In this document: positions 1 through 27,191 of the stretch, piece after piece
Numbering within the stretch: position 1 is the first letter of the stretch
Layout of the letters: each line of letters starts with the position of its first letter
Source: an uncultured Micrococcales bacterium
Lineage (GTDB): Bacteria > Actinomycetota > Actinomycetes > S36-B12 > UBA10799
Direction: 5' to 3'
Length of the DNA: 64,000 nucleotides
NCBI GenBank assembly: GCA_937952095.1
Contig: CALFYG010000089.1
Coordinates: forward strand, 1,114-65,113
Made by a program: the position numbers and the translations under genes
Notes under the pieces: generated by a model
Database searches by the model: none
Seen by the model: only the letters and a program-made list of their open reading frames with translations
What the model was told of the DNA's origin: nothing

Positions 1-336
1 GGTCGGATCCCCGAGTCCAAGTGGTTCCCGCGTCTGGCGATGATCGGCATCATCACCCCGCTTCTCGGTGCGAGCACCGGCTGGATCTTCACCGAGATGG
101 GCCGCCAGCCCTGGGTGGTCTTCAGCCTGATGCTCACGCAGAACGGTGTGAGCCCGACGGTCTCGGTGACGCAGGTACTGATCTCGATGACCGTGTTCAC
201 GCTGCTGTACGGCGTCCTGGCCGTGGTCGAGGTCGGCTTGCTGATGCGGGCGGTCAAGATCGGTCCGCCGGACTCGGTGGAATCCAACTACCCGGACAAG
301 GTCGGCGAAGACCGGCCGCTGACCGTGACCTACTGA
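1..336 (+). CDS. cydA: cytochrome bd quinol oxidase subunit I, C-terminal end (5' part lies upstream of window)
   Basis: Frame open from nt 1. The peptide ...ITPLLGASTGWIFTEMGRQPWVVFSLM... matches the conserved CydA C-terminal region. Stop lies 4 nt before cydB. Confidence 0.9.
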   Translation, partial: GRIPESKWFPRLAMIGIITPLLGASTGWIFTEMGRQPWVVFSLMLTQNGVSPTVSVTQVLISMTVFTLLYGVLAVVEVGLLMRAVKIGPPDSVESNYPDKVGEDRPLTVTY

Positions 337-340
337 GGAG

Positions 341-2500: not shown

Positions 2501-3025
2501 ATGGCTGTCGACATCGTTCTCGTTCTCGGTTCCGAACACCGCCGTCTACGGCAACTCCTGGACCGGTGCGGCCGGTCCAGCCGGGGTTTCCATGACCCGG
2601 CCCAGGAGTTGCACAAGGCGCTGCGTGCACACGTACTGGCCGCCACCGCGGAGGTCTACCCGACCGCCGCGGCGCTTGGGTCTTCGTCGCAATGGCCCGC
2701 TGAGGAGATCGCCGACATCCGGATGTGCGCGGAGTCCAGCCATCCGGCTCGTGAGGAACTGACCGGCGCCGCGGAGGGGCTGATCCGCATCGAGCGGCAC
2801 ATCGTCGCGCTGCTCGAGCAACTCGGACTCGACGAACGCCGCCGCCTGGGAAAGGTCTTCCGGATCCGCCGCGACGCGCAGCTGCGCGGTTCGAGCAGCG
2901 GTTCGCGGCGTCGCCGGTCGCAGACGGAACTGTACGAAATGGCCCGCCGGGCCGGGGTGGAGCATCGCTCCCGGATGACGCAGGCACAACTACAGGCGGC
3001 CATCGAAGCCCGCAGCAGTGGTTGA
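2501..3025 (+). CDS. hypothetical protein, hemerythrin-like N-terminus and Rho_N/SAP-like C-terminus
   Basis: N-terminus DIVLVLGSEHRRLRQLL...ELHKALRAHVLAATAEVYP. C-terminus TELYEMARRAGVEHRSRMTQAQLQAAIEA resembles the Rho N-terminal helix pair. Confidence 0.5.
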   Translation: MAVDIVLVLGSEHRRLRQLLDRCGRSSRGFHDPAQELHKALRAHVLAATAEVYPTAAALGSSSQWPAEEIADIRMCAESSHPAREELTGAAEGLIRIERHIVALLEQLGLDERRRLGKVFRIRRDAQLRGSSSGSRRRRSQTELYEMARRAGVEHRSRMTQAQLQAAIEARSSG

Positions 3026-3119
3026 TCAATCAATCCGAAATGCACCTTTACGGGACCTACCGAAACATGTACTGTAGTTCGTGCGTCGAGAATCCGGCGC
3101 ACTCTCGGATCTACAGAGA

Positions 3120-3155: not shown

Positions 3156-3228
3156 GACTTCTGCATCCCGACGTGAGCTTCAGACACCAGGCCGCGTCGC
3201 TCCACACTCCTGTTGAGCGAGGTTTCCT

Positions 3229-5003: not shown

Positions 5004-5042
5004 GCAACTCGCCGGCCGGCCCTCCGCCGGCCGGCGAGTTGC
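5004..5042 (+). terminator. perfect 17-bp GC-rich hairpin after the GT-sigma gene
   Basis: GCAACTCGCCGGCCGGC / GCCGGCCGGCGAGTTGC with the 5-nt loop CCTCC. No T-tract, which is common in high-GC actinobacteria. Confidence 0.6.
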
Positions 5043-5167: not shown

Positions 5168-5707
5168 ATGATGGCCGTCAACGCGGTGCTGTTCGATCGT
5201 GATCACACACTGACGATCGACGACCCGCCCTACAACGGGGATCCGGACCTGGTGCGCCCCATGCCGGGCGCGGTGGAAGCTGTGGCCCGCCTGCGCACCG
5301 CGGGTATTCCCGTCGGGGTTGTGACAAACCAGGCAGGAATCGGTCTGGGACTGCTCACCCATGAGCAGGTCGAGAAGGTCAACGCGCGCGTTGACGAAGT
5401 GGTCGGACCCTTCGACACGTGGCAGTACTGCCCGCACGCTCCCGCCGACGAGTGCAGTTGCCGCAAACCCGCGCCCGGTCTGATTCTGCGTGCCGCCGAC
5501 GCTCTGGGAGTCGATGCGCGCACCGTGGTCGTCATCGGGGACACCGTCATGGACGTGGGAGCTGCCGAATCTGCCGGTGCCACCGGGATCCTCGTCCTCA
5601 CCGATCGGACACGGGCCTCGGAGATGCGGCGTTCCCGGCTCGTCTGCCGAGACCTTCTGTCAGCAGTCGACTGGGTCCTCGCGGGTCAGTGGGTGATGCC
5701 CGCATGA
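5168..5707 (+). CDS. gmhB: D-glycero-D-manno-heptose 1,7-bisphosphate phosphatase (HAD-IIIA)
   Basis: LFDRDHTL...VVTNQAGIG...CPHAPADECSCRKPAPGL...IGDTVMDVGAA (GmhB/HisB-N type motifs). Confidence 0.85.
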   Translation: MMAVNAVLFDRDHTLTIDDPPYNGDPDLVRPMPGAVEAVARLRTAGIPVGVVTNQAGIGLGLLTHEQVEKVNARVDEVVGPFDTWQYCPHAPADECSCRKPAPGLILRAADALGVDARTVVVIGDTVMDVGAAESAGATGILVLTDRTRASEMRRSRLVCRDLLSAVDWVLAGQWVMPA

Positions 5708-6711
5708 GTGCGCGCACGTTGGTGACCCGGCTCGACAGCGCCGGTGACGTGCTGCTGGCCGGACCAGCGGTGCGCGCCGTCGCGCGATCGGGTGCCAGCG
5801 TCCCCCTTCTGTGTTCGCGCAAGGGTCTGGCAGCGGCGCAGTTGCTGCCGGACGTCAGTGAGATCCTGGTCTTCGATGCCCCGTGGGTGCACGGCGATCC
5901 TCCGCCCTTGCGCGCACGCGACCTCGCATCGCTGAGCTGGCGCCTGTACCGCCGCCGCTTCGACGACGCGGTCATCCTGACCTCGTCCTTCCAGAGTTCG
6001 CTGCCCATGGCCATGCTCTTGCGCGCGGCGCGGGTGGGCCGGATCTGCGGGGTCAGCGACGACTACCCGGGAAGTCTGCTCGACGTGCGCGTGCGGGTCG
6101 ACGACGGTCTGCACGAGGCCGAGCGAGCCGCTGCGATCGCGCAGGCCGCGGGGTACCCCGCCGATGGCGAGGGTCCCCGCATCCGTGAGGACCTACCGGA
6201 GGTGCCGGGCTGGGCTCCGGGCGGACCGTACGTGGTGCTGCACCCCGGCGCTGAGGTCCCGGCACGCATGTGGGATCCGGACCTGGCGCGCGATGCGGTG
6301 GAACTCATGCAGCGTGAAGGTCACCGGGTTGTGGTCACGGGCGGCCCCGATGAGCGCGCACTGACTGCCCACGTCGCAGGCGCCCACGGCGTCGATCTCG
6401 GCGGGCGTACAACACTGGCACAGCTGGCTGGAGTGCTGCGGGGAGCACAGGCCGTGGTGGTGGGCAACACGGGCCCCGCACATCTGGCAGCAGCGCTCGG
6501 CGCACCTGTGGTGTCCTTGTTCTCGCCGGTCGTACCGGCGCACAAGTGGGCTCCCTACACCGACCGGCTTCTCGTGCTCGGCGACCAATACGCGGCATGT
6601 GCACAGACCCGGGCGCGGGAATGCCCGGTCGCGGGTCACCCATGTCTGCGCTCGGTCGGTCCGCGCGATGTCCTGGCCGCTGTCGAGACCCTCACGCGGG
6701 TGGTCGCATGA
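5704..6711 (+). CDS. GT9 family glycosyltransferase (heptosyltransferase-like) 1
   Basis: ATGA overlap with gmhB. RLDSAGDVLLAGPAVRAV...GGRTTLAQLAGVLRGAQAVVVGNTGPAHLAAALGAPVVSLFSP... Confidence 0.85.
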   Translation: MSARTLVTRLDSAGDVLLAGPAVRAVARSGASVPLLCSRKGLAAAQLLPDVSEILVFDAPWVHGDPPPLRARDLASLSWRLYRRRFDDAVILTSSFQSSLPMAMLLRAARVGRICGVSDDYPGSLLDVRVRVDDGLHEAERAAAIAQAAGYPADGEGPRIREDLPEVPGWAPGGPYVVLHPGAEVPARMWDPDLARDAVELMQREGHRVVVTGGPDERALTAHVAGAHGVDLGGRTTLAQLAGVLRGAQAVVVGNTGPAHLAAALGAPVVSLFSPVVPAHKWAPYTDRLLVLGDQYAACAQTRARECPVAGHPCLRSVGPRDVLAAVETLTRVVA

Positions 6712-7661
6712 AAGTGCTCATGTGGCATGTCCACGGCGCCTGGGCGACGGCGTTCGTCCACGGCCGCCACGAGGTGCTCGTTCCCCTGACACCGGACCGA
6801 GGACCCGACGGCCGTGGTCTGCCGGCCACCTACGCATGGCCGGCGTCCGCCCGCGCCGTCTCGCCCGGGGAACTCGCGCAGGAGCAGTTCGACGTGGTCG
6901 TTCTGCAGCGGACCGAGGAGATCGACCTGCTTCGCCTGTGGTGCGGTCTGCGGGCAGGGGTCGATGTGCCCGCGGTGTTCGTCGAACACAATGCGCCACT
7001 GCAGCCGGTGGCCAGCCGGCACCCGCTCGCAGAGCAGAGCCGGATCCCCATCGTGCATGTCACGCACTTCAACGCGCTGATGTGGGACAACGGGCGGGCC
7101 CGGACCGAGGTGATCGAACACGGGATTCCCGACCCGGGGCCGCGGTACCGCGGAACGCTTCCGAGGGCCGCGGTGGTGGTGAATGAACCCCTTCGCCGGG
7201 GACGCGTCACGGGCACTGATCTCCTGTCGACCGTCGCCGACTCCGCCGCGGTCGACGTCTTCGGCATCGGAACGGCGGCACTGACCACCTCGGCCCACCG
7301 GCACAAGATCCTCGGTCATGGCGACATCGCTCACGATCCGTTGCTGGATCTCGTCGCCGGGCGCCGGGTGTACGTGCACCTGTGCCGTTGGACCAGCCTG
7401 GGCCTTTCCCTGCTGGAGGCCATGGCGATGGGGATGCCGGTGGTCGGTCTGTCGACCACGGCGGCACCCGAGTCCCTGGCCGCGAGCGCGGCTGTACTGA
7501 CCAACGACCCGCATGTCCTGCGCAGCGCGCTGCGCGAGTACCTCAACGACGACGCCGCCGCCGACGCCGCCGGGCGCCGGAACAGGTCGGCCGTGCTTTC
7601 CCGCTTCAGTCTCGAGAGGTTCCAGACCGACTGGGACCGAGTACTCAAGGAGGTCCTCTGA
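6708..7661 (+). CDS. GT1/GT4-like glycosyltransferase
   Basis: ATGA overlap. ...RRVYVHLCRWTSLGLSLLEAMAMGMPVVGLSTTAAPE... (GT-B C-terminal motif). Confidence 0.75.
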   Translation: MKVLMWHVHGAWATAFVHGRHEVLVPLTPDRGPDGRGLPATYAWPASARAVSPGELAQEQFDVVVLQRTEEIDLLRLWCGLRAGVDVPAVFVEHNAPLQPVASRHPLAEQSRIPIVHVTHFNALMWDNGRARTEVIEHGIPDPGPRYRGTLPRAAVVVNEPLRRGRVTGTDLLSTVADSAAVDVFGIGTAALTTSAHRHKILGHGDIAHDPLLDLVAGRRVYVHLCRWTSLGLSLLEAMAMGMPVVGLSTTAAPESLAASAAVLTNDPHVLRSALREYLNDDAAADAAGRRNRSAVLSRFSLERFQTDWDRVLKEVL

Positions 7662-8887
7662 TGAGGATTGCAATGGTGTCCGAACATGCCAGTCCGCTGG
7701 CCGTGCTCGGGGGTGTGGATGCCGGCGGCCAGAACGTCCACGTCGATGCACTCGCCCGCAACCTCGCCGCCCGCGGTCACGAGGTGGTCGTGCACACCCG
7801 GCGCGACGACCCTGACCTGCCCACCACCGTCGAGCTCGCACCTCGGTTGCGCGTGCATCACGTCGACGCGGGCCCGCCCACGTATGTGCCCAAGGACGAA
7901 TTCGGGCCATTCCTGCCGCGGTTCGCGGAGGAACTCGCACGCTACTGGGGTCGTTGGCGACCCGACATCGTCCACGCGCACTTCTGGATGAGCGGGGTGG
8001 TGAGCCTACTGGGCACCGAGCAGTACGCGATTCCGTCGGCGATCACATTCCACGCCCTCGGCGTGGTCAAGAAGCGGCACCAGGCGCAGGCCGACACCAG
8101 TCCTGATGTCCGGATCCCCGCCGAGCGGCAACTGATCGCTCGCATGGATCGCATCATCGCCACGTGCAGTGATGAGGTCCGTGAGTTGCAGGGTCTCGGT
8201 GGCGAGATCGACCGCATCGACGTCGTGCCGTGTGGTGTCGATGCGCAGGCCTTCGTGCCCCGGCCCTCGGTGCGGCCCGACGGACGTCCGTTCCAGGTCC
8301 TGTCGCTGGGCCGTCTCGTGCCGCGCAAGGGGGTTGGTGAGGCCGTGCGCATGATGACGGAACTCCCTGATGCGGAGTTGGTGGTCGCAGGCGGACCGCC
8401 CGCGGCCGAGGTGGACGACGACCCGGAGGTCAAGCGGCTCCGATCGTTGGCCAGGGAGCTCGGTGTGGCTGATCGGGTACGCTTCGTCGGCGCCGTGGAC
8501 CGCGATCGCGTGCCGCAGCTGGTGGCCGACTGTGACGTGGCCGTGTGCCTTCCCTGGTACGAGCCGTTCGGCATCGTGCCGCTGGAGATCATGGCCTGCG
8601 GCCGGCCGGTGGTCGGATCTGCGGTCGGGGGCCTTCTCGACACGGTCAGTGACGGCAGGACCGGACTACTCGTAGCACCCAAGGCACCGAGTGAGGCTGC
8701 TTCGGCCGTGCGGCGTCTGCTCGACGACCCCCGGCGGCGCGCCCGAATGGGTGAGGCCGCACGCCGCAAGGTGGAGCGTCTGTACGACTGGCGAGAGGTC
8801 GCCGAGGCGACCGAGGCGGTGTACCAGCAGATGTTGCAGGAGCGCGGACCGAAGCAGTCCGTCGCGGTGGGACGGACGGCGCGGTAA
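7661..8887 (+). CDS. GT4 family glycosyltransferase
   Basis: 1-nt TGATG overlap. MRIAMVSEHASPLAVLGGVDAGGQNVHVDALARNLAARGHEVVVHT...CLPWYEPFGIVPLEIMACGRPVVGSAVGGLLDTVSDGRTGLLV. Confidence 0.88.
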   Translation: MRIAMVSEHASPLAVLGGVDAGGQNVHVDALARNLAARGHEVVVHTRRDDPDLPTTVELAPRLRVHHVDAGPPTYVPKDEFGPFLPRFAEELARYWGRWRPDIVHAHFWMSGVVSLLGTEQYAIPSAITFHALGVVKKRHQAQADTSPDVRIPAERQLIARMDRIIATCSDEVRELQGLGGEIDRIDVVPCGVDAQAFVPRPSVRPDGRPFQVLSLGRLVPRKGVGEAVRMMTELPDAELVVAGGPPAAEVDDDPEVKRLRSLARELGVADRVRFVGAVDRDRVPQLVADCDVAVCLPWYEPFGIVPLEIMACGRPVVGSAVGGLLDTVSDGRTGLLVAPKAPSEAASAVRRLLDDPRRRARMGEAARRKVERLYDWREVAEATEAVYQQMLQERGPKQSVAVGRTAR

Positions 8888-9522
8888 TGAGTCCCCGAAC
8901 GGCGGCCCGGACCTCGGGACCGGACATCGAGATCCTGGTCGACCCCTTGGTCCAGGAACACCGAGCGGCAACAGTGTCAGCCCTGGAGCTGGCGGGCCCG
9001 GCGCTGGAGAAGGTGGCTGCGTGGGGCCGACGTCTGGCCGAGAAGTTGTCCACGGGCGGTCGTCTGCTGGTGTGCGGCAACGGCGGTAGCGCCGCAGAGG
9101 CTCAGCATCTGAGCGCGGAGATCGTGGGCCGTTTCCGGGACGACCGCCCGGCCTTCTCCGCACTGGCGCTGCATGCCGAGACCTCGAGTCTGACCGCGAT
9201 CGCCAACGATTACGGCCACGTGCACATGTACGCGCGGCAGGTGGAGGCGCACGCCAATCCCGGTGATGTGCTCCTTCTGCTGTCGACGAGCGGCCGTAGC
9301 CCGAATCTTCTCGAGGCGGCTGATCGCGCCAACCGGCTCGGCGTGCGCACCTGGGGTCTCACCGGACCTGCCCCCAATCCTTTGGCACAGCGCTGCGATG
9401 AGGCCGCGACCGTGCCGAGCGTGTCCACCAGCGCGATCCAGGAGGTGCACCTGGTCGCCGTTCACGTGCTCTGTGCAGCATTCGACGCCGCATTGCCGGC
9501 CACTTCGCGGCAGGTGCTCTGA
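8887..9522 (+). CDS. gmhA: phosphoheptose (sedoheptulose-7-P) isomerase, SIS domain
   Basis: 1-nt TAATG overlap. LLVCGNGGSAAEAQHLSAEIVGRF...ALALHAETSSLTAIANDYG...LLLSTSGRSPN. Confidence 0.88.
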   Translation: MSPRTAARTSGPDIEILVDPLVQEHRAATVSALELAGPALEKVAAWGRRLAEKLSTGGRLLVCGNGGSAAEAQHLSAEIVGRFRDDRPAFSALALHAETSSLTAIANDYGHVHMYARQVEAHANPGDVLLLLSTSGRSPNLLEAADRANRLGVRTWGLTGPAPNPLAQRCDEAATVPSVSTSAIQEVHLVAVHVLCAAFDAALPATSRQVL

Positions 9523-10925
9523 TGTCCCCGGATTGGACCGACGCGCCGCCGCTGGTGGTCGTGGGCGACAGCCTCCTGGATGTCGATGTAGACGGCTCCT
9601 GCACGCGAATGTGCCCCGACGAACCGGCCCCGGTGGTCGATGCCAGCCGGAGGATCGATCGCCCAGGAGGTGCCGGTCTTGCGGCGCTGCTCGCCGCCCG
9701 TGACCGCCCGGTCGTGCTTGTCACCGCGATCGGTGCCGATGAGGCAGGTGAGCGACTGCGGGAGCTGCTGGACGGACGCGTCACGCTTGTCGATCTCGGC
9801 GCCGCACACACCGTGGTCAAGACGAGGGTGCGTGTGGATGGCCGCACGCTGGTGCGAATCGACGAGTCCGGTACCGGGCATCCGGGCATTCATGGCGTGC
9901 CCGACGACGTCGCCGCCTGGTTGCGGTCCGCCGCTGCGGTGCTGGTCAGCGATTACGGCCTCGGAGTCACCTGTGAACCCGGCATCCGTCGGCTACTGGC
10001 GGCGGGACCCACTGTGTGGGACCCCCATCCTCGCGGCGCACAGCCCGTGCCCGGCGTCACGCTGGTTACCCCCAACGTCCAGGAGGCGTCGTACTTCTCA
10101 GGCCTGACAGGCAGCGGTCTGGCCGCCGCGATCAGGCAGGGCACGGACCTTGTCGAGCGCTGGTCCGCCAGCGGCGTGGCGGTTACGCGTGGCCGCGACG
10201 GGGTTGTCCTGTGCGCGCCGGACAGCCCGCCGCTGGTCGTGCCCGCCGAGCGGATACATGCAGGCGACACGTGCGGTGCAGGCGACGCGTTCGCGGCCGG
10301 TACCGCCCTCGCCCTGGCCACCGGGGCTGATGCCGCGCAGGCGCTGTCGGCCGGCGTTCGGCGAGCCGGGGACTTCCTGGGCAGGGGAGCGGTGGCAGGC
10401 CTGGATGCCCCTGAGTTCCGTGCGCCGACGCCGATCGGTGCCGATCAGGTCGTCGCCCGCACGCGAGCCGGCGGTGGCACCGTCGTGATGACCGGTGGCT
10501 GCTTCGATCTGCTGCATGCGGGCCATGTGGCGTATCTGGAGGCGGCCCGGTCGCTGGGCGACTGTCTGGTGGTCGCCCTCAACAGTGACGACAGTGTGCG
10601 CGGACTCAAGGGACCGGGCCGTCCGCTGGTTCCGGCCGCGGACCGCAGCCGGGTCCTGAGTGCCTTGGCCTGCGTCGACGCGGTCGAGGTGTTCGAGACC
10701 AGCACCCCGGTCCCGGTCCTCGAGCGCCTCAAGCCGGACATCTTCGCCAAGGGCGGGGACTACCGGGGCCACTCGATCCCGGAGGCCGCCGCGGTGCAGG
10801 CCTACGGCGGCCAGGTGGTTGTGCTGCCCGAACTGATCGGGCGCAGCAGTACCCGCCTCGTGCATGCGGCACGTGGAGCGGATCACGCAGTGGAGGAGCA
10901 GACATGTCGGACGCAGTCGGCCTAG
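9522..10925 (+). CDS. hldE: bifunctional heptose 7-phosphate kinase / heptose 1-phosphate adenylyltransferase
   Basis: 1-nt TGATG overlap. N-terminal PfkB kinase (VVGDSLLDVDV...GDTCGAGDAF) plus C-terminal cytidylyltransferase (VVMTGGCFDLLHAGHVAYLEAARSLGDCLVVALNSDDSVRGLKGPGRP). Confidence 0.88.
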   Translation: MSPDWTDAPPLVVVGDSLLDVDVDGSCTRMCPDEPAPVVDASRRIDRPGGAGLAALLAARDRPVVLVTAIGADEAGERLRELLDGRVTLVDLGAAHTVVKTRVRVDGRTLVRIDESGTGHPGIHGVPDDVAAWLRSAAAVLVSDYGLGVTCEPGIRRLLAAGPTVWDPHPRGAQPVPGVTLVTPNVQEASYFSGLTGSGLAAAIRQGTDLVERWSASGVAVTRGRDGVVLCAPDSPPLVVPAERIHAGDTCGAGDAFAAGTALALATGADAAQALSAGVRRAGDFLGRGAVAGLDAPEFRAPTPIGADQVVARTRAGGGTVVMTGGCFDLLHAGHVAYLEAARSLGDCLVVALNSDDSVRGLKGPGRPLVPAADRSRVLSALACVDAVEVFETSTPVPVLERLKPDIFAKGGDYRGHSIPEAAAVQAYGGQVVVLPELIGRSSTRLVHAARGADHAVEEQTCRTQSA

Positions 10926-11593
10926 GCCGGGTACTCATCACCGGAGGGGCATCCGGGCTCGGCGCAGCGGTGGCCGACGGCGTGGCAGCTGCCGGTGGAG
11001 AACCGATCGTGATGGACCTCGTCGCGCCTCGGCGCTCCCACGTCCACTTCGCCGTCGATCTCGCGGATACGGCAATGACCGAATCCGTGACGTCCTTCAT
11101 CGCCGCGGATGGCCTCGACGCGGTGGTGACCTGTGCCGCGATCGACTCCTGCGGCCCGCTCGAGACGGTGAAGACCGAGGACTGGGAGCGCGTGGTTCAG
11201 GTCAATCTGATGGGTACTGCGGCTGTGATTCGGGCCTCGATGAGTGCCCTGCTGGAGTCCCAGGGGCAGGTCGTGACGGTGGCATCCACCTTGGGCAGGC
11301 GCGCCTTGCCCGACGCCTCCGCCTACTGTGCCTCCAAGTTCGGCGTGGTGGGCCTGACGCGGGCGCTCAATGCGGAGATGGGGCACCGTCTGCGCGTCAC
11401 CTGTGTCATGCCGGGGGGGATGGACACCCCGTTCTTCGACGGCCGGCCACAGAAGTACAGGCCGGCCGCCGACGCCCCCCTGATGGTGCCGGAGGACGTG
11501 GCGGAGGTCATCGTGGACGTCCTTCGCCGGCGGGGATCGGCCACCGTCCCGGAGATCATGATCACCCCTGGTGGGGAGACCTCATGGCCGTAG
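10904..11593 (+). CDS. classical SDR family oxidoreductase
   Basis: VLITGGASGLGAAVA...ASAYCASKFGVVGLTRAL. 22-nt overlap with hldE. Confidence 0.8.
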   Translation: MSDAVGLGRVLITGGASGLGAAVADGVAAAGGEPIVMDLVAPRRSHVHFAVDLADTAMTESVTSFIAADGLDAVVTCAAIDSCGPLETVKTEDWERVVQVNLMGTAAVIRASMSALLESQGQVVTVASTLGRRALPDASAYCASKFGVVGLTRALNAEMGHRLRVTCVMPGGMDTPFFDGRPQKYRPAADAPLMVPEDVAEVIVDVLRRRGSATVPEIMITPGGETSWP

Positions 11594-12474
11594 CCCTGGC
11601 GCTGCGTGCCGCCGGTGTGGGTGACCTGCTCACGGCGGTCCCGGCCCTGCGCGCCGTGGCGCAATGCGATGGGGTACGCCGACTGGAGATCGCAGCACCA
11701 GGTTGGCTGCATCCGCTGGTACATCTCGTTCCGGGGGTCGCAGGGGCGGTTGATGTCGATGGGCTGATCCCACGACGTGATCTGTCGGACGCCGTGGCGT
11801 TCAACATGCACGGTCGAGGCCCGCAGAGCCATCAGGCGCTGATGACCCGGGAGCCCAGGGAGCTGGTGGCGTTCGCGTGCCCCGGGGTGTGGGAGACCGG
11901 TCCGGAGTGGTTCGTGGATCCGGAGGAGCCGGAGCGGGAGAGGTTCTGCAGGCTCGTGCGCTGGATCGGTCTGGACGCAGACCCCGAACTGGTGGGCATT
12001 CGCCGTCCGGATCGCAGGAGTTCGTACGGTCACGTCGTTCTGCATGTCGGCGGCACGGACCCACGACGCAGATGGCCTCCCGAGTACTTCGCCGATCTGG
12101 CCCGCCGGTTGGCCGGCCACCGCATCGTGCTCACCGGGGGACCCGCCGACATCGTGATAGCCCGCCGCACCGCACACCTGGCCGGTCTGGCCAGCGATCA
12201 GGTTCTGGCAGGCCGGCTGGGACTCGAGGACCTTGCGGCGTTGATCGCCGACGCGCGCCTCGTGGTGACCGGGGACACGGGCGCGGCACACCTGGCCCAC
12301 GCGTACGGCGTTGCCTCCGTGGTGGTGTTCGGGCCCGCCTCTCCCGGACAGTGGGGGCCGCCCACCGCCGTCCGCTCGATCGTTCTGCGTGGTCCGGGCG
12401 AGGAACCGCTCGCGGCGGATGTGCCCGTGGCCGATGTGGAGAAGTCTGTGGCTGCGCTGCTGGAGCAGTCATGA
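11584..12474 (+). CDS. GT9 family glycosyltransferase (heptosyltransferase-like) 2
   Basis: 10-nt overlap. RAAGVGDLLTAVPALRAV...VVLHVGGTDPRRRWPPEYF...LEDLAALIADARLVVTGDTGAAHLAHAYGVASVVVFGP. Confidence 0.8.
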   Translation: MAVALALRAAGVGDLLTAVPALRAVAQCDGVRRLEIAAPGWLHPLVHLVPGVAGAVDVDGLIPRRDLSDAVAFNMHGRGPQSHQALMTREPRELVAFACPGVWETGPEWFVDPEEPERERFCRLVRWIGLDADPELVGIRRPDRRSSYGHVVLHVGGTDPRRRWPPEYFADLARRLAGHRIVLTGGPADIVIARRTAHLAGLASDQVLAGRLGLEDLAALIADARLVVTGDTGAAHLAHAYGVASVVVFGPASPGQWGPPTAVRSIVLRGPGEEPLAADVPVADVEKSVAALLEQS

Positions 12475-14033
12475 ATGGTCCTCCGGAGCTGCAGAAGTTG
12501 CCGAATACTCAGAATCCATCGGGTCCGTCGAAACCGTCGCATCCGTGGAATCTGCAGGCTGCTTCGGACGACCCGGATCGTTGGCAACTTCAGCGGCTGG
12601 TGCCGTCCTTGGCCTGGGGCCGCGTGCTGGTCGTCGGCGATGTCCTGCTCGATGAGTGGCTACAGGGGTCATGCGCGCGGATCGCACGGGAGGCTCCGGT
12701 GCCCACGGTCACCATCGGCTATCGCGACGCCGCACCCGGAGGTGGCGGCAACACGGCGGTGAACGTCGCCAGTCTGGGTGGCCAGGCCCGCCTGATCTGC
12801 ACTGTGGGCGATGACGTCGTGGCCGACGAGCTGGTGGGCCACCTTCGGCGCCGCGGTGTGGATCCGTCCCTGGTGAGGGTCCCTGGGCGGCGCACGGTGG
12901 CCAAGCGGCGGGTCGTCGTGGACGGGCACGTCCTCGCGCGCTTCGACGAAGGTGACACCGGGCCGACTCCCGAGGCGATCGACATCGAAGTGGCCGAGCG
13001 CGTGCGCGCCCTGGCGCAGTCCAGCGATGCGGTCGTGGTGGCGGACTACGGACTCGGGACGTTGGGGGGAGCCGCCGTCAAGGAGGCACTCGCACACGTG
13101 GGTACGAGGATCCCGCTGGTGGTCGACGCTCACGACGTGTGTGCCTGGAGCGGAGTGAATCCCGGTGTGGTCACTCCCAACTGGTCCGAGACCGCCGACA
13201 TCCTGGGCCTCGACCCGCGCATGACGGGGCAGGCGCGCATCGAGCGCATCTGGGGTCACCGGCAGAGGCTGATGGCTGCGACCGGTAGCAGGCAGGTGAT
13301 CGCAACGTTGGACGGTGATGGGGCCCTGATAGTCGATGCCGAGGGGGTGCGCCACATACCCACGCGCAGGGTGGTCGATGAGCACAGCGCCGGGGCGGGG
13401 GACACATTCGCTGCAGCGCTGGCCCTGTCCCTGGCGGTCGGCGCCCCGATGGCGCAGGCCGCACATCTGGCGGTCTCCGCGGCCACGGTGGTCGTGCAGC
13501 GCCCCGGTACCGCGACGTGTTCGGCCGCCGACCTCGTCGCCGGCCCGGACACCGCACTGCTCACGACCGAACAACTCGCCGGGCTCTGTCGCGAGCATCG
13601 GCACGCTGGCCGCACGATCGCCTTCACCAACGGGTGCTTCGACGTACTCCACGCCGGGCACGTCGCGAGTCTGCGGGCTGCCGCCGAGCAGGCCGATGTC
13701 GTGGTGGTCGCCCTCGACAGCGACGCCGGGGTGCGTGCGGTGAAGGGTCCTGGTCGCCCGGTGAACCGCCTGGCCGACCGCGCCGCGGTGCTGGCCGCCC
13801 TGGACACCGTGGACCACGTGGTGTCGTTCGACCGGCCGGCCCCCGTGTCACTCATCGAGATGATCCGCCCCGACGTGTACGTCAAGGGGGAGGATCACGA
13901 CATCAGCACGTTGCCCGAGGCTCAGGCTGTGACCCGGTTCGGCGGGCGCCTTCACCGTGTGCCACTGCTGCCGGACCGTTCGACCAGCAGTGTGATCGCC
14001 GCGTGTGCCGCGGCACAGGGGCGCCCGGCGTGA
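12471..14033 (+). CDS. second HldE-like bifunctional sugar-phosphate kinase / nucleotidyltransferase
   Basis: ATGA overlap. PfkB domain (VLVVGDVLLDEW...PGGGGNTAVNVASLG...GAGDTFAAAL) plus IAFTNGCFDVLHAGHVASLRAAAEQADVVVVALDSDAGVRAVKGPGRP. Carries a ~45-aa Pro/Ser/Asn-rich N-terminal extension. Confidence 0.82.
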   Translation: MNGPPELQKLPNTQNPSGPSKPSHPWNLQAASDDPDRWQLQRLVPSLAWGRVLVVGDVLLDEWLQGSCARIAREAPVPTVTIGYRDAAPGGGGNTAVNVASLGGQARLICTVGDDVVADELVGHLRRRGVDPSLVRVPGRRTVAKRRVVVDGHVLARFDEGDTGPTPEAIDIEVAERVRALAQSSDAVVVADYGLGTLGGAAVKEALAHVGTRIPLVVDAHDVCAWSGVNPGVVTPNWSETADILGLDPRMTGQARIERIWGHRQRLMAATGSRQVIATLDGDGALIVDAEGVRHIPTRRVVDEHSAGAGDTFAAALALSLAVGAPMAQAAHLAVSAATVVVQRPGTATCSAADLVAGPDTALLTTEQLAGLCREHRHAGRTIAFTNGCFDVLHAGHVASLRAAAEQADVVVVALDSDAGVRAVKGPGRPVNRLADRAAVLAALDTVDHVVSFDRPAPVSLIEMIRPDVYVKGEDHDISTLPEAQAVTRFGGRLHRVPLLPDRSTSSVIAACAAAQGRPA

Positions 14034-15142
14034 GTCCTACCCCCCGCGAGCTGCCACGGCTCGATCATGTCGAGTCGATCGCCGTGCTGCGGGCCAACGC
14101 GATGGGGGACTACATCGCAGCCGAGCCGGCGCTGACCGCGTTGCGCAGCGCAGCGCCGCGCGCACACATCACCCTTCTCGCCTCCGCCTGGCACTTGGAG
14201 GCTCTGGCCGGGCGGCCCGGACCCGTCGACGAGGTGATCGTCCTGCCGGAAGTCCCTGGCGGCGCCGCCGTGGAGGAATCCGACTTCATCGCCGGCTTGC
14301 GATCACGGCGTTTCGAGATCGCGTTGCAGATGCACGGTGGTGGCCGCAACAGCAACCCGATCGTGGGCGCGCTCGGAGCCTCGTTCACCGCCGGTTTCCA
14401 GGCGGATGATGCGCCGCCCTTGGACGCCACCCTCGCGTACCAGTACTGGCAGCCGGAGGTGTTCAAGTGGCTCGATGTCGTCGGTCTGTTGGGTGTGGTG
14501 GCCCAGCGGGTGCGACCGCGGTTCCCGGTCATTGCTGAAGACCGCCGCGCTGCAGCCGAGAGCCTGGCCATGGCAGGCGTCGAGCCCGACACGGCGTACG
14601 TCGTGATTCATCCTGGCGCGACCGATCCGCAGCGTCGGTGGCCGGCGCAGCGGTTCGCGCAGGTCGCCGAAGCACTGCGCTGCATGGGGTTACAGGTCGT
14701 CGTGATCGGGACCCCCTCAGAAGGACCCGTCGTCGAGGAGGTGGTCCGTAACGCCCCCGGTGCGGTAGCTGTATCGACGCCGGACTTCGCGGCGCTGGTC
14801 GGCGTGCTGGAGGGGTCTCGGTTGCTGGTGGGCAACGACAGCGGTCCGCGGCACCTCGCAGAGGCCGTCGGGACCGCCACGGTTTCGATCTACTGGTGCG
14901 GCAATGTGATCAACGCCGGTCCGCTGTCACGCGATCGACACCGGGTACACATCTCCTGGACCACACACTGCCCGCAATGCGGCCGGATTCGTGTTGGGGA
15001 GCCCTTCCCCCCGCGTTGTTACGATGAAATCAGTTTCGTCAGCGACGTCCGGACGCAGTCGGTGATCCGAAGCGCCGAGGAGTTGCTCGGTCCGGCGGGC
15101 ACCATCCACCGACGATGCGACGGCAGGAGGGCGGCGTCATGA
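14030..15142 (+). CDS. GT9 family glycosyltransferase (heptosyltransferase-like) 3
   Basis: GTGA overlap. IAVLRANAMGDYIAAEPALTAL...VVIHPGATDPQRRWPAQRF...FAALVGVLEGSRLLVGNDSGPRHLAEAVGTATVSIYW, then the C-terminal Cys cluster CPQCG...RC. Confidence 0.8.
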   Translation: MSPTPRELPRLDHVESIAVLRANAMGDYIAAEPALTALRSAAPRAHITLLASAWHLEALAGRPGPVDEVIVLPEVPGGAAVEESDFIAGLRSRRFEIALQMHGGGRNSNPIVGALGASFTAGFQADDAPPLDATLAYQYWQPEVFKWLDVVGLLGVVAQRVRPRFPVIAEDRRAAAESLAMAGVEPDTAYVVIHPGATDPQRRWPAQRFAQVAEALRCMGLQVVVIGTPSEGPVVEEVVRNAPGAVAVSTPDFAALVGVLEGSRLLVGNDSGPRHLAEAVGTATVSIYWCGNVINAGPLSRDRHRVHISWTTHCPQCGRIRVGEPFPPRCYDEISFVSDVRTQSVIRSAEELLGPAGTIHRRCDGRRAAS

Positions 15143-15465
15143 GCACGGACCCGTCGAGGCTGGTCGTCTCCGACTCGGTGGCGAGGCTGATCCTTGCCGC
15201 GGAAGTCACTGGTGAGGACTCGGAACTGGTGCGAGAGCGCGTCAGTTCTGAGCTGCGGCAGCCGCTCTCGCGCTTCGTGATCGATCTGTCTGCGTGCAAG
15301 TTCCTGGACCCGGAGGCCGTCGATCTGATCGGCTCAGTGATGGGCGTGGCCGACCAGCGGGACATACCCATCGTCCTTGAAGGTGCGTCGGCCAACGTGC
15401 GAGTGATTCTCGGGATCGCCGGACTGCTGGACTTCCCGGCCGACCGGGGAGAGGGTGGATCATGA
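15139..15465 (+). CDS. STAS domain protein (anti-sigma-factor antagonist-like)
   Basis: ATGA overlap. ...RFVIDLSACKFLDPEAVDLIGSVMGVADQRDIPIVLEGASANVRVILGIAGL. The DSSG phosphoserine position appears to read DPEA. Confidence 0.75.
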   Translation: MSTDPSRLVVSDSVARLILAAEVTGEDSELVRERVSSELRQPLSRFVIDLSACKFLDPEAVDLIGSVMGVADQRDIPIVLEGASANVRVILGIAGLLDFPADRGEGGS

Positions 15466-16673
15466 ATCCGGTGGACGGGGGGAGCCGGTGGGAGGCCCCG
15501 GACACCCCACTGGTGCAGACAGTCGCGGCCCTCGGCAAGGAGGTTCGCGATCTGCGTGCCTCGGCACGGCTGCGCGCAGTGATCGAACAGGCCAAGGGCG
15601 TGCTGGTCGAGCGGCACGGGATCTCACTTGACGAGGCCTTCTCACGGCTGCGCAGCATGTCCCAGGAGCACAACGTCAAGCTTGTGGAAGTGGCGGCCAC
15701 AGTCGTGGGTGTGGCGCTTCCCGAGGACGAGGCACCGGAGTCCGCGGAGATCCTCGTCGACGAGGCCTTTCCGGCGTCGGAGGCGACCTCAGCGACGTGG
15801 AAGACCCTGCGCGAGCAACCGGATGTGAAGGCCGGCGTTGTCACTGCCGTGATGGATGCGGTGGCCAGTGCCACCGACGAGGGGTCGGAGGCGGCACAGC
15901 TGCTGCTGGAACTGATGGAGCCGTCCGGGGCGGCGGCGTTGACGATGTACCGGACGAGCGTCGATGGTTCGTTGCGCCTGGTCGGCCACGTGAACATTCC
16001 GGGGGACCTGGTCAGCTCCTGGCGCAGCGTGCCACCGAGCACCGATGTGCCGTTCGTCCGCTCGGTGGTGGACAACGTCGCCCTGTTCTGGGGGGACCGC
16101 GCGGAGCGGATCGCCGAGTTCCCGCAGGTGGCGCGCAGCGGTTCGGCCGGCTTCGAGGCGACCGCGACCATCCCCGTGGTGGAGGAAGAGACGGTCATCG
16201 GTGTGATCGGTCTGATCTGGCGTGATCGGCAAACGTTCGACGACCTGCGCAAACGGTCGATCACCAAGACCGTTCAGCGCGTGGCTCCGCTGTTGATGCG
16301 CAATCTGCGGGCCGCGGATCCGGAACTCGACTGGATGAACACCCTGATGCGGCTGCATCTGGATCCGTGGCTGATCCTCGATATCGTCCAGAACTCACAG
16401 GGCCAGCCCACCGATTTCGTCGTCCAGGATGTCGCCTCCAACGTCGCTGGTGGCGGCGACTGGCTGGGGCGCCGCCTGTTCGAGATCTGGCCCTTCCTCG
16501 CCGAGGACGGGACAGGTGACACCCTCATGCAGTTGGCGAGGACCGGCGGATCCTGGTCGGTAACCATCGCTGAGGAGTCGGCGGCGCCGTGGGGGGTCCC
16601 GGGGGGCATCCTGCGGTCCGTCCGCCTGGGGCTACGTGTGGCTCTGCTCTGGCGCACCGGCCAGCCGCACTAG
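15462..16673 (+). CDS. ANTAR domain (N-terminal) + GAF + PAS-like protein
   Basis: ATGA overlap. LRAVIEQAKGVLVERHGISLDEAFSRLRSMSQEHNVKLVEVAATVV is the ANTAR motif. The middle has a GAF-like pattern (..ATIPVVEEETVIGVIGLIW) and the C-terminus is PAS-like. Confidence 0.75.
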   Translation: MNPVDGGSRWEAPDTPLVQTVAALGKEVRDLRASARLRAVIEQAKGVLVERHGISLDEAFSRLRSMSQEHNVKLVEVAATVVGVALPEDEAPESAEILVDEAFPASEATSATWKTLREQPDVKAGVVTAVMDAVASATDEGSEAAQLLLELMEPSGAAALTMYRTSVDGSLRLVGHVNIPGDLVSSWRSVPPSTDVPFVRSVVDNVALFWGDRAERIAEFPQVARSGSAGFEATATIPVVEEETVIGVIGLIWRDRQTFDDLRKRSITKTVQRVAPLLMRNLRAADPELDWMNTLMRLHLDPWLILDIVQNSQGQPTDFVVQDVASNVAGGGDWLGRRLFEIWPFLAEDGTGDTLMQLARTGGSWSVTIAEESAAPWGVPGGILRSVRLGLRVALLWRTGQPH

Positions 16674-18083
16674 CAGCAAGGACGCGTCTCCACGGGCCTG
16701 CCGGGGCGTCATCACCGCATTCATGACAATCCTCGCCCACCCCTGCGTGGACCTGCGACGCAGTGCCACCGCACTGGCCCTGAGGTTCGACAGCCCCTCG
16801 ACCAGATCGCGCGTGCCATCGACCACGCCGTCGGTGTAGATGAGCAGCGAGTCCGACGGCAGCACGCGGGCTTGAACCACGTTCTGCGATCCGGGGCGAG
16901 GAGCTCCGATGCCACGCCCTGTGGCTTCAAGCCAGTCGCAGGAACCGTCGTCATGCACCAGCAAGGCGGGCGGGTGTCCGCCGGACACCAGCTCGACCCG
17001 CCCGGTGGCAGGATCCATCACGGCCGCCAGTAGAGAGGCCCGCGGTGGCTGCGTCTCGGCCGAAAGCGTCTGCGCCGAGCGTGCGATCAGCTGGTCGAGG
17101 GGGACTCCCGCGGCGAAATGCGCTCGGCTCACATACAGGACTTTCCACGCGTCCCGCACAGATATGACCCCGGAGCCCAGGGCGTCGACCACGAGGATGA
17201 GTACTCGCCCGTCCGGCATCTGGCCGACGTCGATGACGTCTCCCCCGCTTGGCGTGTCCGGGCCGGCAGTGGTACCCCACAGATCGAGTTCCACTCCAGG
17301 AATTCGCGGCAGCGTCGCCTGCTGCGGGGAGCCGAGTGCCTTGAGCAGCGCGGTCTGTTCCCGCCGGCGGGCGGCGGCCTCCAGCAGGGCCCGCCGATCC
17401 TGCTCGGCCTCGATGATCGTCGTGACGTCCCGGATGGAGACCAGAGTTGTGTCCTCGTCCACGCGTGAGGCGTAGTACTCGATCCACCGTTCACCGTCCG
17501 GTCCGAGCAGCCGTTCGTCCTCATGCAGGCGCGCGGGCTCGTCGGCAGACAGCCGCCGGGGGTCGTCCATCACACAACCACCCGAACAGACTCGGCCGTC
17601 GGCCAGGACGTGGCCGAGCAGGCGATGCAACGCGACAGAGGGTGCCACGCCCGGCGCGAAGGTGCTCATCGCCGGATTCGCGAGGACGACGCGACCCTCG
17701 TTGTCCAGGACCGCCAGACCCTCGGGGACGGACTCGAACACCCGCGACTGGGTGCGCTTCAGGCGGGTCAGGCGGGCCACACGCAGGTCGATCGCCCACG
17801 AGGCCGCGACGCCGAGAAGCGAGGCGAGCGCCACGTTCCCGATCCGGTACGCCTTGTGGTCGGTGTCGGTTGCGAAGGCCACCGCCACAGCGGTGAGCAC
17901 TGCGGCTCCAGCCACGATCATCGTCTCGCGGGGGTTGAGGAAGAGTGCGGCGGCGACGACCACGATGCCCATGGTGGGGATGAGGACTCCACCGAACTCC
18001 GGCACCACGATGGCCAGAACCAGCAGGCAGCCCAGCGGTATGCCGATGGTCGCCGAACGCAATCGCGGACCCACTGGCGGCAC
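16632..18083 (-). CDS. membrane-anchored PAS + PP2C/SpoIIE-family phosphatase
   Basis: 3-4 N-terminal TM helices. PAS (FESVPEGLAVLDNEGRVVLANPA). PP2C motifs GGDVIDV, VVDALGSGV, LIYTDGVVD, GDASLLLV. Confidence 0.82.
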   Translation of the reverse strand: MPPVGPRLRSATIGIPLGCLLVLAIVVPEFGGVLIPTMGIVVVAAALFLNPRETMIVAGAAVLTAVAVAFATDTDHKAYRIGNVALASLLGVAASWAIDLRVARLTRLKRTQSRVFESVPEGLAVLDNEGRVVLANPAMSTFAPGVAPSVALHRLLGHVLADGRVCSGGCVMDDPRRLSADEPARLHEDERLLGPDGERWIEYYASRVDEDTTLVSIRDVTTIIEAEQDRRALLEAAARRREQTALLKALGSPQQATLPRIPGVELDLWGTTAGPDTPSGGDVIDVGQMPDGRVLILVVDALGSGVISVRDAWKVLYVSRAHFAAGVPLDQLIARSAQTLSAETQPPRASLLAAVMDPATGRVELVSGGHPPALLVHDDGSCDWLEATGRGIGAPRPGSQNVVQARVLPSDSLLIYTDGVVDGTRDLVEGLSNLRASAVALRRRSTQGWARIVMNAVMTPRQARGDASLLLVRLAGAPEQSHT

Positions 18084-26621: not shown

Positions 26622-27191
26622 GTGACCGTGACGGGAAATGGCCAGGACGTCCTGGACCTACTCATTCAGGAACACCGCGACGTCGAGCAGATGCTCGAGC
26701 AGTTGAGCATGCAGGACGGGCAGGAGCAGGACCCGCGGGACGTCGCCGATCTGGTGATCGCCAGCCTCGTGCGGCACTCCGTGGCAGAGGAGATGTACGT
26801 CTACCCGGCCATGCGTGAGTACCTCGAGGACGGTGACGCGGCAGTCGAGCACGACATCGCCGAACACCAGGAGATCGAGGAGTGCCTCAAGGATCTCGAG
26901 GGGCTCGAGCCGGCCGACGGCCGCTTCACGGAGGTGGTCGCCCGGTTGCAGGAGCTCATCGCCGATCACGTCAGTGACGAGGAGGACGAGCAGTTCCCGC
27001 GTCTGCGCGAGGTCGTTCCCGAGCAGCGGCTCATCGACCTTCGCGAGAAGGTGGAGGCTGCCGAGAAGGTGGCGCCGACCCGGCCGCACCCGAACACCCC
27101 GCACAGTGAGCTCTTCCACAAGGTGGTCGGTCCCGGGGTGGGGATGGTTGATCGTCTGCGGGATGCCATCTCGGGGCGGATCACCCCCTGA
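26622..27191 (+). CDS. hemerythrin HHE cation-binding domain protein
   Basis: AGGAGGA SD then GTG. DVLDLLIQEHRDVEQMLEQL...LVRHSVAEEMYVYPAMRE...EHDIAEHQEIEECL...DHVSDEEDEQFPRL. Confidence 0.8.
   Translation: MTVTGNGQDVLDLLIQEHRDVEQMLEQLSMQDGQEQDPRDVADLVIASLVRHSVAEEMYVYPAMREYLEDGDAAVEHDIAEHQEIEECLKDLEGLEPADGRFTEVVARLQELIADHVSDEEDEQFPRLREVVPEQRLIDLREKVEAAEKVAPTRPHPNTPHSELFHKVVGPGVGMVDRLRDAISGRITP

Follow-up and report, generated by a model that had tools for sequence, protein, structure and literature searches.

The locus considered here raises the question of how genes of a partner-switching type could signal without a kinase, and what they would control. In textbooks, sigma-B and sigma-F are activated through partner switching, whose defining feature is a cycle in which a kinase and a phosphatase act on a STAS protein. 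The analyzed stretch of DNA (the window; 64,000 nucleotides of contig CALFYG010000089.1, assembly GCA_937952095.1, from an uncultured Micrococcales bacterium; G+C content ~68%) carries three signalling genes at 15139-18083. They code for a STAS protein, a sensor protein in which an ANTAR domain is followed by GAF and PAS-like domains, and a membrane PAS-PP2C phosphatase (Table 1). The three genes are a conserved non-canonical unit tied to an upstream gene for a sigma factor fused to a glycosyltransferase (GT)-like domain, and this linkage is well supported. That the genes are functionally coupled to the sigma fusion is judged highly probable.

Linkage was examined at 15 distinct loci, the window included, with the upstream view of each locus covering a 10-kb flank or reaching to the contig end. 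The sigma fusion was found upstream of the ANTAR gene at 11 of the 15 loci, down to 50% protein identity. At the remaining four, the flank or contig was filled by a heptose cluster and the position of the sigma fusion was out of view; in three of these four blocked loci, the first visible gene of the cluster was GmhB, which in the window comes immediately after the sigma fusion. The sigma half of the fusion (residues 348-566) matched NCBIfam TIGR02980 at 247.4 bits (cutoff 234.35), and Pfam gave sigma regions r2, r3, and r4 together with a weak Glycos_transf_1 match in the N-terminal half. This SigB/SigF/SigG-type gene was assigned as the output gene of the module through synteny only. Sigma fusions of this kind make up more than 220 clusters.

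The interval between the sigma fusion and the (STAS-)ANTAR genes was variable. It contained nothing in L001, L005, L009, L013, L208, and L210, a GmhB-like gene in L006 and L012, a CsbD gene in L006 and L212, a GT4 gene in L007, and the whole heptose cluster in the window, L008, L010, L011, and L209. In the window, this ten-gene cluster lies between the sigma fusion and the STAS gene, and its last GT9 gene is translationally coupled to the latter. Since the cargo of the interval varies while both flanking genes stay, what is constant is the pairing of sigma fusion with ANTAR protein, and the heptose genes count as cargo that can be exchanged; a heptose glycan cluster is thus found inside a string of regulatory genes because such cargo sits between the sigma gene and the regulator. 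STAS was present at 6 of the 15 loci (absent at nine) and PP2C at ten (absent at five), and both are accessories of one sub-clade. The original prediction had taken all three genes as a signalling set that may control the sigma fusion. Its linkage to the fusion stands, being conserved at 11/15 loci; the trio as such is not the core, as STAS and PP2C are dispensable.

In the ANTAR protein, Pfam ANTAR (PF03861) matched residues 30-82 of 403 over model positions 2-54 of 54 (66.9 bits, 1.3e-18); the sensor domains follow it, and no signal-receiving domain is located N-terminal to it. A GAF_2 match (residues 143-265, 1.1e-5) was slightly under the gathering threshold, and the GAF domain was confirmed by homologues and by AlphaFold2 (AF2) and Foldseek. 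The AF2 model (mean pLDDT 77) has a helix of residues 15-52 running into a three-helix ANTAR bundle, a GAF alpha/beta fold at ~159-253, a linker helix at 261-281, and a second, PAS-like alpha/beta domain at 287-398. By Foldseek, the sensor part resembled phytochrome PAS-GAF-PHY and tandem-GAF modules with probability 1.0 and a low TM-score, the latter expected because the model is multi-domain. Profile matches in the PDB were EutV, NasR, and PAL. The LOV flavin-cysteine motif NCRFL was absent from the translated protein.

More than 160 full-length homologues with 50-98% identity were collected, all from uncultured Actinomycetota (metagenome-assembled genomes labelled Micrococcales or Candidatus Nanopelagicales), and the ANTAR domain ranked among the best-conserved regions of the protein. 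R38, E42, K45, and Phe60 were invariant. Phe60 corresponds to EutV Tyr164, which stacks on the flipped-out loop G4 in the EutV-RNA complex (PMC8934654). EutV K143 and K147 are replaced by Ala39 and Gln43.

At least 112 clusters of such N-terminal ANTAR proteins (50% identity, E<=1e-30) were obtained in a search of 1.84 billion cluster representatives, and the architectures of 10 of the 112 were checked with Pfam. Proteins of ~400 amino acids (aa) were stand-alone ANTAR-GAF-PAS, those of ~550 aa had one additional PAS, those of 620-823 aa (with unchecked hits to ~880 aa) were fusions with a SpoIIE-type PP2C, and those of 940-1085 aa were tandem copies. Judged by these predicted architectures, the ANTAR-first proteins are a sizeable uncharacterised family and no one-off. 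The domain order noted earlier, ANTAR first and then GAF and PAS-like regions, was confirmed; it is not unique, given the at least 112 clusters and the solved precedent of PAL.

The STAS protein matched Pfam STAS (1.4e-8) and STAS_2 (2.5e-8), both above gathering. Its lone sequence gave no match against the PDB, and an orthologue profile was therefore needed for the structure match: a profile of ten orthologues matched SpoIIAA (1auz, 4.7e-7; 1th8, 9e-7). The profile alignment places D57-P58-E59-A60 of the STAS protein against D57-S58-S59-G60 of SpoIIAA, as in the by-eye alignment of the original prediction, which had Pro-Glu-Ala at the phospho-Ser of SpoIIAA/RsbV. There is no Ser or Thr at the phospho-site; Pro58, at the position of Ser58, is invariant across all STAS orthologues, as is Cys53, and no conserved Ser/Thr was found at other positions of the orthologue alignment. 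Ser2 and Thr3 were considered as an alternative phospho-site and rejected, as these residues vary in L005, L208, and L009. The STAS protein of the module is, by this alignment, predicted to be non-phosphorylatable at the SpoIIAA-type site.

The translational coupling of STAS and ANTAR to the last GT9 gene, also noted earlier, was found in the sequence as two ATGA overlaps, one between the GT9 stop and the STAS start (15139-15142) and one between the STAS stop and the ANTAR start (15462-15465), each with a GGAGG-like Shine-Dalgarno sequence ahead of it. The STAS and ANTAR genes overlapped or abutted in 6/6 STAS-bearing loci.

The PP2C gene is convergent with the ANTAR gene, and their 3' ends share 42 nucleotides (nt); a tail-to-tail overlap of 10-82 nt was seen in 9/9 loci having both genes. 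The closest solved relative is the phosphatase domain of Rv1364c from Mycobacterium tuberculosis (3ke6, 3.5e-12; with a profile, 1.3e-15). In SpoIIE, the metal ligands are D628, D746, and D795 together with the G629 carbonyl (PMC5468089). Equivalent residues were taken from the alignment to 5mqh/3t91, where the numbering of D795 rests on the 5mqh and 3t91 construct lengths. SpoIIE D610, D628, and D746 correspond to D282, D300, and D418, all invariant in the orthologues. SpoIIE D795, the first D of DDMT, corresponds to Gly465 and is non-Asp in 7/9 orthologues, and D796 corresponds to D466 (D, E, or N in orthologues). The last metal motif is D-D in L008 and L208 only, and the other seven have G-D, S-D, G-E, or G-N. 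Since the D795 equivalent is non-Asp in 7/9 orthologues, the predicted active site is partly eroded. The convergent arrangement described earlier thus holds, as do D282, D300, and D418 of the metal-binding motifs then thought intact; the D795 equivalent, Gly465, does not fit that description.

In the PAS domain of the same protein, H153, H158, C166, G168, G169, C170, and D173 are invariant (HxxxxH...CxGGC). This His/Cys cluster suggests a metal, haem, or redox-disulfide site.

An RsbW/SpoIIAB-type kinase was searched for in several ways, and, in agreement with the original prediction, none was found in the window. Pfam gave no HATPase_c_2 among the scanned genes (~2/3 of the gene calls; the other ~1/3 of the calls are mostly obvious enzymes and transporters). 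With phmmer on six-frame open reading frames (ORFs), using two Kitasatospora RsbW proteins and two Bacillus sequences as queries, no RsbW-like gene was detected in the window or in loci L001-L013, and a local RsbW hidden Markov model (HMM) built from 14 RsbW-like sequences gave none among all six-frame ORFs of the window. The kinase-free span is 64 kb here and 20 kb in the 10 orthologous loci searched.

The sole GHKL domain in the window, a weak HATPase_c match (2e-4), is in the central part of a 745-aa protein that spans the membrane several times. An H-box like that of histidine kinases was recognized in it by eye, and a gene for a LuxR-type response regulator is located nearby. This protein was rejected as the missing kinase, since the membrane spans, the H-box, and the nearby regulator make an ordinary two-component pair. 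In L001 and L005, too, the two genes keep synteny with the module, and the L001 orthologue of the 745-aa protein was the only match of the RsbW HMM in orthologous loci (5.5e-7).

More distant homologues of the ANTAR protein (26-33% identity, E 1e-15 to 1e-31, over the N-terminal 360-400 residues) were found in cultured Kitasatospora, Dactylosporangium, Phytomonospora, Longispora, Saccharothrix, and Actinoplanes. They are 757-891 aa long, and the tandem protein of Actinoplanes has 1053 aa. Fusion of the ANTAR-first module to a SpoIIE-type PP2C was confirmed by Pfam in Kitasatospora (L014), Dactylosporangium (L015), and Phytomonospora (L020), with the strongest GAF and PAS matches in L014; PP2C hits in the same ORF were also obtained in L021, L035, and L072 (Saccharothrix and two more Kitasatospora loci). 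A SigB-type sigma gene is located <=10 kb away in most fusion loci. In Kitasatospora L014, the gene order is RsbW-like, STAS, RsbW-like, ANTAR-GAF-PAS-PAS-SpoIIE, a convergent second PP2C, and SigB-like, and its STAS carries D-S-T-G with Ser at the phospho-site. At 7365-9656 of Dactylosporangium L015, on the minus strand, a stand-alone, high-scoring GT4 gene is followed immediately by a SigB-type sigma gene, with the ANTAR-PP2C fusion alongside. This pair, in the same order as in the fusion, is predicted to be the unfused version of the GT-sigma fusion of the window.

Some 60 loci of the ordinary kind, in which ANTAR is C-terminal, were also obtained in the genome scan, and a GAF-like match was common among them. 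The ANTAR gene has a STAS or RsbW gene beside or near it in L043, L051, L052, L063, L065, L073, L077, and L027 (a tandem N-terminal form); five of the STAS genes are immediately adjacent and the others 0.5-3 kb off. In a MAFFT alignment to SpoIIAA, 7/8 of these STAS proteins were without the phospho-Ser (A, N, A, V, A, C, and A). Ser was kept in 4/4 STAS proteins of the Kitasatospora fusion loci, where RsbW-type genes occur in L014 and L016. Small as these counts from a MAFFT alignment are, they suggest that, in the phylum, ANTAR proteins are usually partnered by a STAS that cannot be phosphorylated. No paper connecting ANTAR with PP2C, STAS, or sigma factors was found in the literature search.

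Canonical ANTAR targets consist of two hairpins having hexaloops with A1 and G4, spaced by 2-25 nt (PMC8164766). A scan of the window for this dual-hexaloop motif gave eight matches against 5.2 expected, every one inside ORFs, and Rfam at gathering thresholds gave no family in the whole window, consistent with the earlier failure to see such hairpins there. The search was run on 21 related loci as well and returned no dual-hexaloop motif at syntenic positions.

A different RNA element was found ahead of the sigma fusion. The leader hairpin, CGACGUG-A-GCUU-[CAGACACC]-AGGC-CGCGUCG, lies 30 nt 5' of the sigma-fusion ATG in the window and ~30-50 nt across loci. In its loop and upper stem the hairpin is invariant (core GUGnGCUUCAG..A..AGG), even between loci with protein identity of only ~50%, and covariation is seen in the lower stem (G-C to U-A, A-U to G-C, and C-G to U-A): 91.7% of cells were paired, compared with 28-48% when the 3' partner was slid, and four pairs had compensatory changes, which was reached by 0/500 shuffles. 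Because U-G pairs are invariant or frequent, the hairpin is a feature of the sense-strand RNA and not a DNA palindrome. When 1.6 Mb of related loci were searched with a covariance model of it, R1, each sigma-fusion locus had exactly one copy and no further copy turned up. R1 was without a match in fused-type loci, so that the Kitasatospora-type clusters do not share this hairpin. Rfam in E-value mode gave a single meaningless snoRNA match on the leader (E 7.9). In a pattern scan of metagenomes for the leader hairpin, all 120 returned stretches were rejected as chance matches lacking a complementary 3' arm. A second, weaker conserved hairpin, GCGUC...GGCGC, is located a little further upstream.

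The leader hairpin was present in 12/14 sigma-fusion loci: in 11/11 with a linked ANTAR gene and in 1/3 without an adjacent one. In the predicted minimum-energy fold of the 5' region of the window, the 3' arm GUCGCUC pairs with GAGCGAG, which runs into the GAGG Shine-Dalgarno sequence. Since the 3' arm alternatively pairs next to the Shine-Dalgarno sequence in this fold, calculated for the window only, whatever binds the hairpin could change how accessible the ribosome-binding site (RBS) is.

Just 5' of the leader hairpin, a SigB/SigF-type promoter-like motif (GGTAT/C-N15-16-GGGTAC) was seen in the more distant clade only (L012 and L013, with similar motifs in L006, L007, L210, and L212), which suggests autoregulation of the sigma fusion in that clade. 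The sub-clade of the window has no clear motif of this type and instead has a housekeeping-like TTTACG-N17-TACTGT.

Taken together, these observations are read as a phosphorylation-independent derivative of actinobacterial SigB/F partner switching; for this reading as a whole, we put the chances at about even. The move away from phosphorylation is proposed because there is no nearby RsbW, the Pro of STAS is fixed, and the PP2C ligand is lost in most orthologues or the PP2C itself is absent in some loci. In the mechanism envisaged, the ligand state of GAF and PAS would set the activity of the ANTAR dimer, and the ANTAR-GAF-PAS protein would be the primary regulator of the sigma fusion. The translationally coupled STAS would bind or compete for the ANTAR protein stoichiometrically and without phosphorylation, like AmiC on AmiR; AmiC controls AmiR through stoichiometric sequestration and is a precedent for control by a protein partner. 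The membrane PAS-PP2C, proposed as a modulator of the ANTAR protein because the two are one polypeptide in relatives, would convey a signal from the envelope or the redox state to it, acting through weak phosphatase activity or simply through binding. The output would be synthesis of the sigma fusion, most likely through the ANTAR protein on the single leader hairpin of the sigma-fusion mRNA. Binding there could shift the competing fold of the window sequence, in which the 3' arm pairs just before the RBS. The sigma fusion would then drive the variable cargo, i.e., the heptose glycan genes here and CsbD elsewhere.

The RNA step is the more tentative part, and that the leader hairpin is the target of the ANTAR protein is possible and somewhat doubtful. 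PAL, also an ANTAR protein, binds single small hairpins and not dual hexaloops (PMC11381354). As its sensor, too, is C-terminal to ANTAR, a single-hairpin target is not implausible.

Several points weigh against the proposed scheme. All contacts among the proteins and with RNA, as well as which component controls which, are inferred. With a loop (CAGNCANC, 7-9 nt) that is no A1/G4 hexaloop, and as a single hairpin, the leader element does not qualify as a canonical ANTAR target. The hairpin is retained in L214, where no ANTAR gene adjoins the sigma fusion, the two hairpin-less loci are also the most divergent, so that phylogeny alone could explain the pattern, and the association is biased because the ANTAR gene was the route by which all but one of the hairpin-positive loci were obtained. 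The association of hairpin and ANTAR gene is thus a trend in the expected direction, confounded by phylogeny and locus sampling. No SigB-type promoter was found 5' of the cargo, STAS, or ANTAR genes, and control of those genes by the sigma fusion could therefore not be demonstrated. Lastly, the predicted phosphatase may still be active on some substrate, because three of its four acidic ligands (D282, D300, and D418) never vary. The genome could also have a kinase gene at another place, as RsbW paralogues are scattered in actinomycetes, and in L215 an RsbW-like gene is found 4 kb from the sigma fusion.

The points about the phosphatase and L215 also speak for the main rival, ordinary partner switching, in which an RsbW-type kinase encoded outside the window would hold the sigma fusion, the PP2C would dephosphorylate a different STAS that bears Ser, or another substrate, and the local, non-phosphorylatable STAS would be a competitor or decoy. 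RsbW regulation is typical of the SigB/F/G family, to which the sigma domain belongs, and the fused ANTAR-PP2C relatives have adjoining RsbW genes. In M. tuberculosis, the non-phosphorylatable STAS protein RsfA acts on the kinase-type anti-sigma factor UsfX, which likewise counts in favor of such a circuit. It is nevertheless held to be unlikely, given the kinase-free span of the window and of the orthologous loci, the loss of the D795-equivalent ligand in most PP2C orthologues, and the many loci in which PP2C or STAS is missing although the sigma fusion and ANTAR are kept.

Somewhat less probable still is that the ANTAR-GAF-PAS protein acts on proteins, its coiled coil and three-helix bundle serving as a dimerisation or sigma-binding surface, so that it would be a new anti-sigma factor or co-factor with STAS as its antagonist. 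The tightest co-occurrence is indeed that of the ANTAR protein with the sigma fusion, no other anti-sigma candidate is found nearby, the RNA-contacting K143 and K147 of EutV are Ala39 and Gln43 here, and the canonical target RNA was found neither in the window nor in the 21 related loci. The ANTAR domain is, however, full-length and highly conserved, it keeps the aromatic RNA-stacking position and the motif pattern of the RNA-binding PAL, and the literature search gave no ANTAR domain that binds a sigma factor.

The earlier suggestion that the ANTAR protein is a classical antiterminator of the coupled heptose/glycosyltransferase operon mRNA is considered very unlikely. STAS and ANTAR are the last genes of this operon, and a strong hairpin precedes it: a perfect 17-bp GC-rich hairpin without a U-tract directly 3' of the sigma-fusion stop (region z-score -3.8), which may serve as terminator or attenuator and so set the sigma gene apart from the cargo/STAS/ANTAR unit. 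Yet no conserved counterpart of this hairpin was found at the other loci, the heptose cluster is optional (5/15 loci against 15/15 for the ANTAR gene), no dual hexaloop was found in any intergenic region of the operon, and there is no dual-hexaloop/terminator pair at a conserved place. That the three genes are unrelated chance neighbours would fit the absence of STAS and of PP2C from some loci and is extremely improbable, being already contradicted by the ATGA coupling, the tail-to-tail overlap in 9/9 loci with ANTAR and PP2C, the synteny down to ~50% identity, and the domain fusions in other genera.

Table 1. Positions of the features discussed; coordinates are those of the window unless a locus is named (RNA, predicted RNA element; aa, amino acids).
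Feature	Position	Strand	Basis or remark
174-aa protein	2501-3025	+	no Pfam/NCBIfam match
Housekeeping-like promoter motif	~3051-3079		
Second, weaker hairpin (RNA)	~3083-3104		
Leader hairpin (RNA)	3169..3199	+	alignments, RNAalifold, covariation
Leader hairpin, further copies	L001 8005-8035; L214 7904-7951		L214, 35.6 bits
SigB/SigF-type promoter-like motif	L012 7158-7185; L013 7428-7453		
GT4-like domain fused to SigB/SigF/SigG-family sigma factor, 589 aa	3229..4998	+	TIGR02980, Pfam, synteny
GC-rich hairpin (RNA)	5004..5042	+	RNA fold
Heptose/glycosyltransferase cluster: GmhB, GT9, GT, GT4, GmhA, HldE, SDR, GT9, HldE, GT9	5168..15142	+	ORFs, GT9 Pfam
STAS protein, anti-sigma-antagonist fold, 108 aa	15139..15465	+	Pfam STAS, STAS_2; profile alignment to SpoIIAA 1auz/1th8
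ANTAR/GAF/PAS-like sensor, 403 aa	15462..16673	+	Pfam ANTAR, PDB profile matches, AF2, Foldseek, homologues
Coiled-coil helix and ANTAR, residues 15-85	~15504-15716	+	
GAF, residues ~143-265	15888-16256	+	
PAS-like domain, residues ~285-400	16314-16661	+	
Membrane PAS-PP2C, 483 aa	16632..18083	-	Pfam; Rv1364c 3ke6; SpoIIE 5mqh alignment
SpoIIE-type PP2C, residues 290-474	16662-17216	-	Pfam, 9e-24
PAS_4, residues 116-221	17421-17738	-	Pfam, 5e-9
Hydrophobic N-terminus, residues 8-98	17790-18062	-	8-74 by hydropathy; further stretch to ~98 by eye
Hemerythrin-domain gene	26622-27191	+	
Hemerythrin-domain gene, other loci	L005 12904-13479; L007 11355-11924; L013 11243-11857; L215 9841-10398		
745-aa membrane protein	29658-31895	+	
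LuxR-type response regulator	33508-34149	-	
Cytochrome bd genes	1-1420		
CsbD gene	L006 9008-9181; L212 9622-9795		

Some neighbouring genes recur around the module. CsbD, which lies between the sigma fusion and the ANTAR gene in L006 and L212, is a classic sigma-B-dependent general stress protein in Bacillus, and a function of the sigma fusion in general stress would agree with this location. The 174-aa protein encoded directly 5' of the sigma fusion is kept in most loci (L006, L007, L009, L013, and others), and its C-terminus resembles a Rho_N/SAP-like helix pair; in L213, a ChaB/Rho_N protein occupies this position. The 174-aa protein might be part of the sigma-fusion unit. A hemerythrin-domain gene recurs near the module, in several loci directly after the ANTAR gene or the sigma fusion, and cytochrome bd genes are located upstream of the module in the window. 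Together, these neighbours hint at an oxygen or redox theme.

As to what the module means, the sigma factor, the STAS fold, and a PP2C are what this lineage retains of partner switching, and it has lost the local kinase, the phospho-site, and, in most orthologues, one metal ligand; the gene always kept is that of the ANTAR RNA-binding sensor. The data suggest that STAS proteins can regulate ANTAR proteins, or be regulated by them, without phosphorylation and that ANTAR domains are wired into sigma-B networks, a link not found in the searched literature. Both the pairing of a non-phosphorylatable STAS with ANTAR proteins and the conserved sigma-leader hairpin appear undescribed, and the conserved leader RNA ahead of a sigma gene is a concrete target for testing. 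The broadest form of the proposal, which we consider improbable as it stands, is that control of SigB/F by ANTAR sensors and a non-phosphorylatable STAS in place of the RsbW step is widespread in Actinomycetota and operates post-transcriptionally via a single-hairpin sigma leader.

Among known systems, RsbU/RsbV/RsbW-sigmaB and SpoIIE/SpoIIAA/SpoIIAB-sigmaF of Bacillus, and Rv1364c and UsfX/RsfA/RsfB-SigF of M. tuberculosis, are like the module in having a SigB/F/G sigma factor, STAS, and a SpoIIE-type PP2C. The best solved relatives of the module proteins come from such circuits (SpoIIAA for STAS and Rv1364c for PP2C), and the complete set is present in the Kitasatospora relatives. The module differs from partner switching in having no local kinase, Pro in place of the phospho-Ser, no D795-equivalent ligand, a sigma factor fused to a GT4-like domain, and a constant ANTAR partner. 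The nearest precedent for its STAS is RsfA, which is non-phosphorylatable and redox-controlled but still acts on a kinase-type anti-sigma factor.

With EutV, NasR, AmiR, and PdtaR/Rv1626, the module protein shares a full-length ANTAR behind a long coiled-coil helix; unlike in the module protein, the sensor or receiver is N-terminal in these proteins. The targets of classical ANTAR proteins are tandem A1/G4 hexaloop hairpins overlapping a terminator or RBS (PMC8164766). PAL (PAS-ANTAR-LOV; 6hmj) of Nakamurella multipartita is closer, being actinobacterial, having a PAS-type sensor after ANTAR as in the module protein, and sharing with it the ANTAR motifs xIxQAKG and xxAF. In contrast to PAL, the module protein has no N-terminal PAS and no visible NCRFL, its sensors are GAF and PAS-like, and it is linked to sigma, STAS, and PP2C genes.

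The uncharacterised ANTAR-GAF-PAS-SpoIIE fusions of Kitasatospora, Dactylosporangium, Phytomonospora, Longispora, and Saccharothrix have a homologous N-terminus and SigB-type neighbours, and the fusion gene of L014 is followed by a second, convergent PP2C, as PP2C converges on ANTAR in the module. They differ in that the phosphatase is in one polypeptide with the sensor and has the canonical D-D motif, and Kitasatospora adds RsbW and a Ser-bearing STAS. If the broadest form of the proposal is true, these fusions of streptomycete-like genera would be an evolutionary bridge, in which one sensor has both phosphatase and RNA-binding outputs.

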